IMG/VR virus record: IMGVR_UViG_2617270976_000012
Location: 1 to 48,151 of that record
DNA: 48,151 nt
Reading direction: 5' to 3' (one strand)
From: a virus
Taxonomy: Duplodnaviria > Heunggongvirae > Uroviricota > Caudoviricetes
Shown: positions 38,345 to 39,881 of the stretch, one piece after another
How positions within the stretch are numbered: position 1 is the stretch's first letter
Layout of the letters: each line of letters opens with the position of its first letter
Made by a program: the position numbers and the translations under genes
The notes under the pieces: model-generated
Told to the model about the DNA's origin: nothing
Databases searched by the model: none
Seen by the model: the letters and a program-made list of their open reading frames with translations, nothing else

Positions 38345-38546
38345 ATTTCCAAGAATTGTATTATAAATTAATCTTTATTGTTTCATGCAAAATTATTTTT
38401 TGTCGTCTTAACAGAAAGTGTGAAATTTGTCTCTTGTTTACATTTTGTTGCATTTAATGAATTGAATTCAGAATTTGTAGTAAAATATTTTAACTGGCGT
38501 TCATGACAGCCCAATTCATGAATAGTTCAATTAAAATAAGGAACAA

Positions 38547-39683
38547 ATGATGAAAAAAATGACAGTGGCACTTTCAGCCGTGGCTGCGGCTGTGATTTTT
38601 GCAGCTGGTGCGCAGGCTGCGGAAGTATATAACAAAGATAGCAATAAGCTTGATCTGTATGGACGTGTAACGGCACTGCATTATTTCTCCAGCGATAAGG
38701 GAAATGATGGTGATCGGACATATGCACGTCTGGGCTTTAAAGGTGAAACTCAGATTAATGATCAACTGACCGGTTTTGGTCAGTGGGAATATCAGTTCTC
38801 TGGTAATAAAACTGAATCAGACGGTGCTGCGGGTAATAAGACTCGTCTGGCGTTTGCAGGTCTGAAGTTCGGTGACTTTGGCAGCATTGATTATGGTCGT
38901 AACTATGGTATTGCGTATGATGTTGGTGCTTATACCGACGTATTACCAGAGTTTGGTGGTGATGGCTGGACCCAGACCGATAACTTCATGACTGCCCGTA
39001 CTTCTGGTGTGGCGACTTACCGTAATACTGATTTCTTTGGACTTGTTGATGGCCTGAATTTTGCAGCTCAGTATCAGGGCAAGAATGAACGTGATGACCT
39101 TCAGGAAGCTAATGGTGATGGTTATGGTTTCTCTGCCAGTTATGAATATGAAGGTTTTGGTATCGTGGCTGCATATACTAACGCAGACCGTACCAACAAT
39201 CAGGTGAAAGGCCTGAATGGTACGCAAACAGTAAACGGTACTCAAACAGTTGTTGATTCCGGCAGTGTTGCAAAAGGTAAACACGCTGAGATGTGGGGCA
39301 CCGGGCTTAAATATGATGCCAACAACATTTATCTGGCGACAATATATTCTGAGACTCAGAATATGACGACCTTTGGCGACAAAGGGGTGGCAGATAAAGC
39401 CCAGAACTTTGAAGCGGTATTACAGTATCAGTTTGATTTCGGTTTGCGTCCATCTCTGGCGTTCCTGCAGTCTCGTGCTCAGGATATAATTGTCGGTGGT
39501 AAAAACTATGGCAATCAGGATCTGGTTAAATATATTGATGTGGGTACAACATATTATTTTAATAAAAATATGTCCACCTATGTTGATTATAAAATCAATC
39601 TGATTGATGAAAGTCAGTTTACCCAGGATGCAGGTGTTGCAACGGATAATATCGTTGCCGTTGGTATGACTTATCAGTTCTGA
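38547..39683 (+). CDS. OmpC/OmpF/PhoE-family outer membrane porin (moron within tail module)
   Basis: Signal peptide [24 protein letters not shown], mature [17 protein letters not shown]..., C-terminal ...[11 protein letters not shown]; closely parallels OmpC as recalled; AT-rich upstream region. Confidence 0.85.
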
Positions 39684-39844
39684 TGATAACTGGTGAGTGA
39701 ACAAATACAGACCATCTGCCCTCACAGATGGTCTGTATCGGTGAAAGTATAGTTTTCACCGGTCACTGCAAACGGCAATTAGCCGATTTAATTTTCATTT
39801 TATTACCTTCATTGCTTTCGATTTTTAATTGAACTTTTTTGTTC

Positions 39845-39868
39845 GGGGCGCATTGCGCCCCTTTTTTA
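39845..39868 (+). terminator. Rho-independent terminator downstream of the porin gene
   Basis: GGGGCGCATTGCGCCCC hairpin followed by TTTTTTAT; a second perfect hairpin without U-run at 39707-39736. Confidence 0.5.
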
Positions 39869-39881
39869 TGGGTGGAAGTTT

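Follow-up and report, generated by a model that had tools for sequence, protein, structure and literature searches.

The closest described counterparts of the locus treated here are the phage porin genes lc (PA-2) and nmpC (DLP12), whose 3' untranslated region (3'UTR) contains IpeX; IpeX is part of the porin transcript and lowers OmpC and OmpF, by a mechanism said not to rest on sequence complementarity alone (PMC12197685, PMC8065619, PMC3333887, PMC5745476). NmpC is transcribed about 10-fold over background in the LF82 lysogen (PMC9928086), and svsR, a small RNA (sRNA) of the lambdoid prophage NC-SV, lowers lamB expression (PMC12247714). The subject of this study is a porin gene with its own flanking regions, situated between the tail genes M and L in a sequence of the Caudoviricetes (IMG/VR record IMGVR_UViG_2617270976_000012, positions 1 to 48,151); this whole stretch of 48,151 nucleotides (nt) is called the window. 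It is very likely that this cassette is a functional porin moron, and we think it probable that it serves lysogenic conversion by a 'porin swap', in which the phage porin would replace the OmpC of the host. Our comparison suggests that the M/L site and the explicit complementarity to ompC are new here; a phage porin with an OmpC-lowering 3'UTR is known from lc/IpeX.

In several respects the cassette resembles the arrangement of Lc/NmpC with IpeX. It encodes a phage-borne general porin whose nearest characterised relatives, at 70-74% identity, are Lc and NmpC; its 5' untranslated region (5'UTR) has the motif AATAGTTCAA in common with that of lc; and its 3'UTR, about 160-190 nt in length, likewise has a GC-rich terminator at its end, just upstream of which lies a stretch antisense to the ompC leader. 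The differences concern place, protein and the sequence of the 3'UTR. PA-2 lc, which carries annotated CRP sites, adjoins the lysis gene Rz, and DLP12 nmpC is flanked by quuD and essD, so that an earlier note on this DNA, which placed phage porins of this type near the Q/lysis region, was right for both that were inspected. Unlike these, the cassette occupies the M/L junction, and its surface loop L5 is much longer and hypervariable. In the searchable literature we found no account of a porin at the M/L site. The porin Ec042-2121 of enteroaggregative Escherichia coli 042, described as phylogenetically distinct (PMC2808357), was considered and set aside: its gene is chromosomal and flanked by drpB and hchA, and in the 042 prophage M and L meet at an empty junction.

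A porin cassette at the M/L junction

Tail genes M and L flank an intact porin open reading frame (ORF), and the extent of the insert follows from alignment to the empty M/L junction of 190 phage records. The features are as follows.

38003-38344, + strand: tail gene M, 113 amino acids (aa; Pfam PF05939 Phage_min_tail, 101.3 bits); the insert contributes its two final codons and its stop (38335-38344)
38335-39881, + strand: the whole cassette, 1,547 base pairs (bp)
38550-39683, + strand: porin coding sequence (Pfam Porin_1), 377 aa, or 378 aa if read from 38547
39871-39876, + strand: new Shine-Dalgarno sequence GGTGGA for L; the order terminator, Shine-Dalgarno, ATG is kept at the right junction of the slot alleles
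39882-40580, + strand: tail gene L (TIGR01600, 361.5 bits; Pfam Phage_tail_L, 305.9 bits)

The empty junction, for which locus L006 serves as an example, reads ...CAGGT GGTGAACTG ATGCAGGA... (that is, ...CAGGTGGTGAACTGATGCAGGA...), and there the stop codon of M overlaps the start of L. The cassette stands in place of 9 bp of this junction (GGTGAACTG): it provides the final two codons and the stop of M together with the new Shine-Dalgarno sequence of L, and the stop/start overlap is thus uncoupled. Across 38350-39850 the GC content is 0.33-0.47, against 0.55-0.65 in the flanking tail genes, and neither a target-site duplication nor a transposase was found at the edges of the insert. With a Porin_1 match of 474.6 bits and recurrence in 48 complete genomes, a porin at M/L is far beyond chance. 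The earlier note had described a complete porin gene that interrupts the M-L junction, with its own AT-rich upstream region and with downstream terminators. Seen against the empty junction, the interruption is evident; the ORF (38547-39683) is intact and matches Porin_1 over its full length; and the upstream region is AT-rich as stated, although the insert begins at 38335 and not with the proposed region 38345-38546. The plural of the terminators does not hold: there is one canonical intrinsic terminator (39845-39867), and the others are conserved hairpins without U-tracts.

The occupied slot is rare. A set of 5,426 complete E. coli genomes contains M-porin-L in 48 members, which fall into three groups by divergence (DNA identity about 99.9%, 84.6% and 81%), whereas an empty M/L junction of this type occurs at least once in 1,198 of the genomes. 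In each of the 190 phage records matching the region, L comes directly after M and no slot is filled, so that the site is an unusual one for cargo, as had been supposed, and the arrangement is not the norm for the prophage family. A protein search returned about 20 clusters with at least 80% identity (360-387 aa), nearly all from E. coli and one from Citrobacter farmeri; among species-representative genomes there was no relative above 72% identity. RefSeq labels the slot porin 'porin OmpC'.

Eleven divergent alleles of at least 80% identity were examined, and the conservation values given below refer to them. Ten sit between M and L or their remnants, including one on a Citrobacter farmeri contig, and allele F is located in a decayed prophage; the tail modules of the carriers vary, with M of 109 or 113 aa and differing tape-measure types. 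The ORF is intact in all eleven, and pairwise ratios of nonsynonymous to synonymous divergence (dN/dS) of 0.06-0.14, at dS of 0.55-1.3 and higher for the most distant alleles, therefore indicate that the lineage is old, is under purifying selection and is no relic. At the same loci, median dS is 1.22 for the cassette versus 0.77 for the adjacent L gene. The opposite possibility, an unexpressed hitch-hiker or pseudogene decaying in the tail operon, could appeal to the rarity of the cassette, to its AT-rich sequence, which could be silenced by H-NS, and to one listed genome (H44) in which the porin is split into two ORFs. In 39 of 40 listed genomes, however, it is annotated as a single intact gene; the porin is not a pseudogene, and besides the low dN/dS and the intact ORFs, the regulatory and RNA elements are conserved and variation resides in surface loops, through in-frame insertions and deletions (indels). 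We regard decaying cargo as highly improbable.

Judged from its sequence, the protein is a general-diffusion porin, probably of the phage Lc/NmpC/OmpD lineage, and it is predicted to form a trimeric diffusion channel in the outer membrane. The Porin_1 match (PF00267, 474.6 bits) covers profile positions 1-337 of 337; the cut-off of the NCBIfam OmpC subfamily is passed (504.8 bits, cut-off 484), and those of the PhoE and OmpF equivalogs are failed. Among structures in the PDB, 48 porins match at E<1e-96, with OmpK37/OmpC as the best and Omp36, PhoE and OmpF also represented. The conserved start is the second ATG (38550), since the other alleles have that Met only, and the RefSeq annotation agrees. 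The alignment with solved porins in their mature form begins at residue 25, which puts cleavage after AQA and the mature N-terminus at AEVYNKD, aligned to residue 1 of the solved porins; the signal peptide seen earlier is thus present and extends to 38618, as placed by this alignment. The C-terminus is YQF, so that the chain closes with the aromatic residue of a porin beta-signal. An AlphaFold2 (AF2) model built with 30 homologues has a layout consistent with 16 barrel strands; because its confidence is modest (predicted local distance difference test score, pLDDT, 67.6), loop boundaries are approximate, and the model was used for strand and loop layout only, being too weak for fold searches. 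The constriction loop L3, with the motif LPEFGGD at aa 133-139, is 95% conserved among the alleles.

Identity amounts to 64% with K-12 OmpC, 72-74% with Lc of phage PA-2, and 68-72% with NmpC/OmpD-type porins in 42 phage records; at a threshold of at least 80% the slot alleles form their own clade. The label 'OmpC-family' is thus adequate at the family level, but the porin is closer to Lc, NmpC and OmpD (70-74%) than to OmpC itself. Orthology to chromosomal ompC is ruled out by the lower identity to OmpC than to Lc and by the location in a prophage tail operon.

Judged by position, terminator and base composition, the cassette is a moron as defined by Juhala and Hendrix, i.e. an extra gene between normally adjacent late genes, with deviant GC content and its own terminator; its own promoter is a candidate. 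HK97 gene 15, which separates M from the tape-measure gene, is reportedly a moron, and lambda lom and bor are said to be likewise. The cassette differs from these in its cargo, a full 16-strand porin with what appears to be a regulatory RNA element, and in the new Shine-Dalgarno sequence given to L.

Individual loci record further rearrangements. At L089 (3659-3790), between the stop of a lambda-type M and the cassette, there is a copy of about 85 bp of the 5' end of L with an in-frame stop, and after this fragment a remnant of about 45 bp of the 3' end of a 113-aa-type M; this arrangement marks the import of the cassette from another tail module by recombination. Prophage L001 (strain LZHX12) carries the identical porin allele, intact though the prophage is heavily decayed. 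Its L and K genes are separated by a second block of cargo (22438-24462), with genes for a ClpP-like protease, an Arc-family repressor and YlcI/YnfO and with a P22AR-C pseudogene, and other tail-tip junctions therefore accept cargo too. Assembly GCA_022375795.1 contains two slot-type porin alleles (P0009, P0016) in one strain (L101 2992-4286; L091), one of them in a decayed M/L remnant by Rop/IS66-like genes, the other without M, L or H homology nearby; the cassette can therefore persist, or move, elsewhere than in the tail slot.

The 3'UTR and its complementarity to ompC

The 184-nt 3'UTR folds at -65.1 kcal/mol (z = -7.2 versus shuffled versions). In the alignment of the eleven alleles, 94% of the cells of three hairpins and the terminator are paired, compared with 37-50% in slid controls, and compensatory (double-sided) changes occur at 10 pairs, a count reached by 1 of 500 shuffles. 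RNAalifold independently finds the same hairpins and leaves the stretch between the third hairpin and the terminator unpaired.

39705-39738, + strand: hairpin H1 of the RNAalifold consensus; 14-bp stem without a U-tract, 4 compensatory pairs, 98.7% of cells paired
39739-39761, + strand: hairpin H2 of the RNAalifold consensus; 4 compensatory pairs
39770-39788, + strand: hairpin H3; consensus stem of 7 bp that shows compensatory changes, with the antisense element directly on its 3' side
39785-39815, + strand: putative anti-ompC element GATTTAATTTTCATTTTATTACCTTCATTGC, with the core TTATTACCTT at 39800-39809; unpaired in the consensus fold
39845-39867, + strand: intrinsic terminator GGGGCGC-ATT-GCGCCCC followed by T6 (terminator scan), preceded by a U-rich stretch; stem invariant in the eleven alleles

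The loop of H3 has an insertion in alleles C, D and J. With its U-tailed terminator, the U-rich run that precedes this and a conserved seed that stays single-stranded, the 3'UTR has features of Hfq-type trans-acting or 3'UTR-derived sRNAs. Because no separate promoter is evident, an anti-ompC RNA would probably be borne by the 3'UTR, and the latter would act within the messenger RNA (mRNA) or, after processing, as an sRNA some 85-100 nt long. Attention was drawn to the unpaired stretch by an Rfam scan, in which MicF matched 39784-39870 over its full length but weakly (26.6 bits, E=0.35, gathering score 79).

The element is identical at 21 of 25 positions to the reverse complement of K-12 ompC from -14 to +12, with two of the mismatches turning into G.U pairs in the RNA, and the complementarity spans the ribosome-binding site (Shine-Dalgarno) and the start codon of ompC. 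In 5,366 of 5,426 genomes the start region of ompC has an identity of at least 99%, so that the predicted target is nearly invariant across the species. Conservation of the element is measured here against 4-fold degenerate sites of the eleven alleles as a yardstick of neutral decay, where pairwise identity is 47.7% and 4.9% of the columns are invariant. The corresponding values for the element are 89.5% and 61%, and its core is 98% identical; the neighbouring spacer and H2 reach 65-67% (spacer 67%). Apart from the terminator, the element is the most conserved non-coding stretch.

Duplex predictions (RNAduplex) for the full-length 3'UTR against start regions were overfitted, with huge loops, and were replaced by tests on the 31-nt element, namely shuffling, a genomic background and an identity-based score. 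The antisense background consisted of 24,004 windows, drawn from both strands of some 96 kb of sequence from E. coli and prophages. Against the ompC start, the identity-based antisense score is 14-17 in 11 of 11 alleles; the score of the window allele is reached by 3 background windows, those of alleles C, G and H by none. The duplex energies of four divergent variants with the 56-nt ompC start region range from -21.4 to -24.9 kcal/mol, which equals the genuine MicC-ompC control (-22.5 kcal/mol) and falls within the top 0.02-0.05% of the background. With a longer ompC leader (-81 to +30), all eleven alleles reach -21.5 to -28.5 kcal/mol. When 12 translation-initiation regions were paired with the four variants, only ompC was strong with all four, and ompF came second, with A-type alleles only; for the cassette's own start, nmpC, lc, phoE, ompN, ompA and ompX, pairing with the four variants stayed at background level. 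As a target, lamB was dismissed: -23.0 kcal/mol for the window allele but not for the three others is attributed to chance.

The comparison with the short porin-regulating antisense RNAs MicF and MicC, which are encoded on the chromosome beside ompC and ompN, is close in design. As in these, a terminator with a U-tail is combined with a 5'-proximal single-stranded region that is complementary to the translation-initiation region of a porin gene; the A-type element is identical to nt 11-40 of MicF at 25 of 30 positions, and the C-type element resembles the 5' end of MicC. In predicted pairing energy with ompC, the cassette element equals MicC. The 3'UTR is nevertheless not a member of the MicF family (26.6 bits versus a gathering score of 79, Rfam RF00033), and unlike micF the element lies downstream of the porin gene and in the same orientation, not divergently upstream, with ompC and not ompF as the main predicted target.

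The comparison with IpeX is of another kind. lc and nmpC have the same 3'UTR sequence, and the IpeX region contains AACCTTCTGTTATATATTACCCTTTATTT just before the terminator (L005 2690-2724, PA-2; identical in L094, DLP12; also in L007 and L077). The IpeX stretch AACCTTCTGTTATAT...CCCTTTATTT is antisense to the ompC leader from -5 to -37 (score 18, shuffling p about 0.012-0.016), with pairing in two helices, of about 15 bp and about 9 bp, that are separated by a bulge of 4 nt, and the lc-type antisense stretch is kept in E. albertii. Unlike that stretch, the cassette element covers the Shine-Dalgarno and AUG of ompC (-14 to +13). Local similarity to ipeX has p of about 0.01 for allele C and 0.05-0.08 for alleles D and J, and is not significant for the A-type. 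The 3'UTR of the slot and ipeX may thus share their logic only. Downstream of chromosomal OmpD-type porin genes, an anti-ompC element was absent from 79 loci of other Enterobacteriaceae (including Enterobacter, Citrobacter and Salmonella); three apparent matches among them are terminators or AT-rich runs.

Complementarity of this kind could also be had without function. In that case the moron would deliver just an extra porin, the hairpins and the terminator would stabilise the mRNA and insulate the tail operon, and the ompC complementarity would be an ancestral by-product without a role in trans, left by an old inverted fragment or a micF-like relic, through shared ancestry of porin leaders. 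It is true that the porin itself is clearly under selection, that H1-H3 have no obvious targets and could be stabilisers, that the match to MicF nt 11-40 could mark a relic, and that specificity based on energy is moderate. A neutral relic, however, should have decayed at dS of about 1, whereas the element and its core are far better conserved than spacer, H2 and synonymous sites; the consensus fold leaves the element single-stranded; the leader of the cassette itself does not match it; and strong complementarity to ompC is found in all eleven alleles despite two registers of pairing. On this balance a porin without a regulatory RNA seems to us rather unlikely, and an anti-ompC function of the 3'UTR element somewhat better founded than its absence.

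Upstream region, surface loops and neighbouring prophage genes

Conserved blocks upstream of the porin start suggest a regulatory region of the cassette's own.

38419-38434, + strand: candidate CRP-like site TGTGA-N6-TCTCT, in the conserved block AAAGTG.GAAAT..TCT of the 11-allele alignment
38437-38452, + strand: OmpR-type box TTTACATTTTGTTGCA, resembling the C1 site of K-12 ompC (TTTACATTTTGAAACA; 16 of 20 positions match)
38462-38491, + strand: candidate promoter, with -35 TTGAAT (38462-38467), an 18-nt spacer and -10 TATTTT (38486-38491)
38498-38549, + strand: probable 5'UTR, its start placed from the candidate -10, with the conserved blocks GTTCATGACA ... CATGAATAGTTCA ... AAGGA (Shine-Dalgarno)

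The OmpR-type box occurs once in the window, where 0.01 matches are expected by chance, and its mean pairwise identity is 88%. Both hexamers are invariant or nearly so, and the -10 region is 96% identical. Taken together, the OmpR-like box, the -10 region, the anti-ompC element and the terminator are 88-98% identical, compared with 48% at 4-fold sites. The candidate promoter read from these conserved blocks is probably activator-dependent; the promoter of ompC itself depends on activators.

Variation within the porin is concentrated in two exposed loops, delimited by comparison of the eleven alleles.

39189-39281, + strand: hypervariable surface loop L5, aa 215-245
39375-39386, + strand: variable surface loop L6, short in the window allele

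Whereas the strands and L3 have identities of 0.86-0.96, mean pairwise identity drops to 0.39 in L5 (16-41 aa) and 0.47 in L6 (4-12 aa), with in-frame indels. L5 of the window allele contains an imperfect 18-bp tandem duplication (NGTQTV twice, 39207-39242) that is absent from the 97%-identical 371-aa allele P0001, an example of loop diversification driven by indels. Alleles E (L089), I (L098) and K (L101) combine a short L5 of 16 residues with 8 inserted residues in L6, and where L5 is long, L6 is short, which suggests that the two neighbouring loops compensate for one another.

The window as a whole is a nearly complete lambdoid prophage of the type of the Shiga toxin (Stx) phages and Sakai prophages, and includes three tRNAs, lysis genes and a terminase. 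Its head is of the HK97 type and its tail tip (H-M-L-K-I-J) of the lambda type, and behind J come a Lom/Ail gene and a tail fibre with collagen repeats. The Lom/Ail outer-membrane beta-barrel gene (45797-46396; Pfam Ail_Lom, 416.5 bits) lies directly after J, so that together with the porin there are two outer-membrane-protein morons in the tail region. The tail-fibre gene (46455-47534) begins with a prophage tail-fibre N-terminal domain and continues with long collagen-like G-X-Y repeats (Pfam Collagen). Between I and J there is an AT-rich gap of about 340 bp (41913-42255, GC 0.41-0.47) whose sole ORF (41934-42275) has no Pfam match and overlaps the start of J; gaps of about 250-490 bp are found there in the related loci L002 and L003, and this could be another non-coding or small-gene insert. 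Rfam matches at gathering level (12061-12236, 16388-16637 and 17475-17684) comprise the antitoxin RNA sok of the hok/sok module, the three tRNAs (anticodons CAT, TCG and TCT), which lie downstream of the Q region, and also STnc100, an sRNA that precedes a 657-aa ORF at 17866-19839. ORFs of stx size were not seen at the usual position in the window.

A model of porin replacement and its alternatives

According to the porin-swap model, the cassette would be transcribed in the lysogen from its own activator-dependent promoter (OmpR-type, possibly CRP-type), and the phage porin would be exported and assembled in the outer membrane. The 3'UTR, in the mRNA or as a processed sRNA, would pair with ompC mRNA and block its translation, and OmpC would thereby give way to a porin with the hypervariable exposed loops L5 and L6. 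The expected outcome is a changed surface, through loss of OmpC as a receptor for phages and colicins and gain of new antigenic loops, together with changed permeability. Q-antiterminated transcription, as known from lambda, reads through terminators; during lytic growth, Q-modified late transcription would accordingly pass the cassette terminator, and L would be translated from the Shine-Dalgarno sequence of the cassette. Among tail modules, the cassette would spread through recombination in the flanking M and L genes.

Similar to svsR of NC-SV, such an RNA would be a prophage product directed, by predicted repression, against a porin-type phage receptor in the lysogen. The two differ in that svsR lies at the 3' end of cI, targets maltodextrin-transport genes and is accompanied by no replacement porin; there is no sequence relation between them.

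Several observations weigh against this model. In alleles C, D and J the best pairing is found in a shifted register (-37 to -4), which takes in the MicC site; the Shine-Dalgarno sequence is covered in both registers. Pairing with ompF depends on the allele. A few G-rich background windows reach the same duplex energy through G.U pairs, and a whole genome would therefore hold many sites of equal energy. The 3'UTR has no significant Rfam family, and its homology to ipeX is not demonstrable, global alignment matching the terminator only. On the + strand, a scan for the sigma-70 consensus (9 of 12 matches) reports no promoter upstream of the porin, because the candidate has only 8 of 12. Allele K (L101) is without detectable homology to M, L or H (tape-measure) beside the cassette. 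Finally, the receptor-binding ends of J are 37-59% identical among carriers, with 92-94% in the rest of J.

The last point bears on what a phage might gain from the removal of OmpC. The idea that the phage removes its own receptor was abandoned: the J C-terminus matches most closely the J proteins of Stx phages and VT1-Sakai, for which we know of no receptor, and because the J ends differ so widely among carriers, we make no claim that the phage hides its own receptor. A related proposal moves the role of the cassette into the lytic cycle, where late bulk porin and RNA would lower OmpC and keep progeny or superinfecting phages off doomed cells and debris. The cassette is indeed co-oriented with and embedded in the late operon, Q-antiterminated transcription would pass its terminator, and a place in the tail operon rather than in the early region fits late co-expression. 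For late read-through, however, a conserved 5' regulatory region and a terminator of its own would be needless; porins already in the membrane are, as is generally known, stable and would not vanish within the latent period; the receptor-binding ends of J vary among carriers; and intact cassettes persist in decayed prophages that are incapable of lytic growth (L001; L090-092). We therefore hold a lytic-cycle role to be improbable and keep to the porin swap in the lysogen.

A wider hypothesis is that phage-borne porin genes in general are two-part porin-swap devices, consisting of an anti-OmpC 3'UTR RNA and a diversifying porin, with the slot cassette as a second, independent family that pairs overtly with the ribosome-binding site of ompC; by its own stretch antisense to the ompC leader, IpeX would then act in a like manner. 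We advance it tentatively, as an idea that falls slightly short of being probable.

OmpC is a much-used receptor of coliphages and colicins, a major entry route for antibiotics and a dominant surface antigen. If the porin-swap model is true, a single mobile step would change phage susceptibility, permeability and antigenicity, and this step would spread among prophages of the Shiga toxin-producing E. coli type and of commensals by recombination in conserved tail genes. A model based on base-pairing can be put to mutation, and it bears on how the 3'UTRs of phage porins control host porins, a question since IpeX. The cassette also suggests that tail-tip junctions of lambdoid phages can host regulated cargo without disruption of tail assembly.

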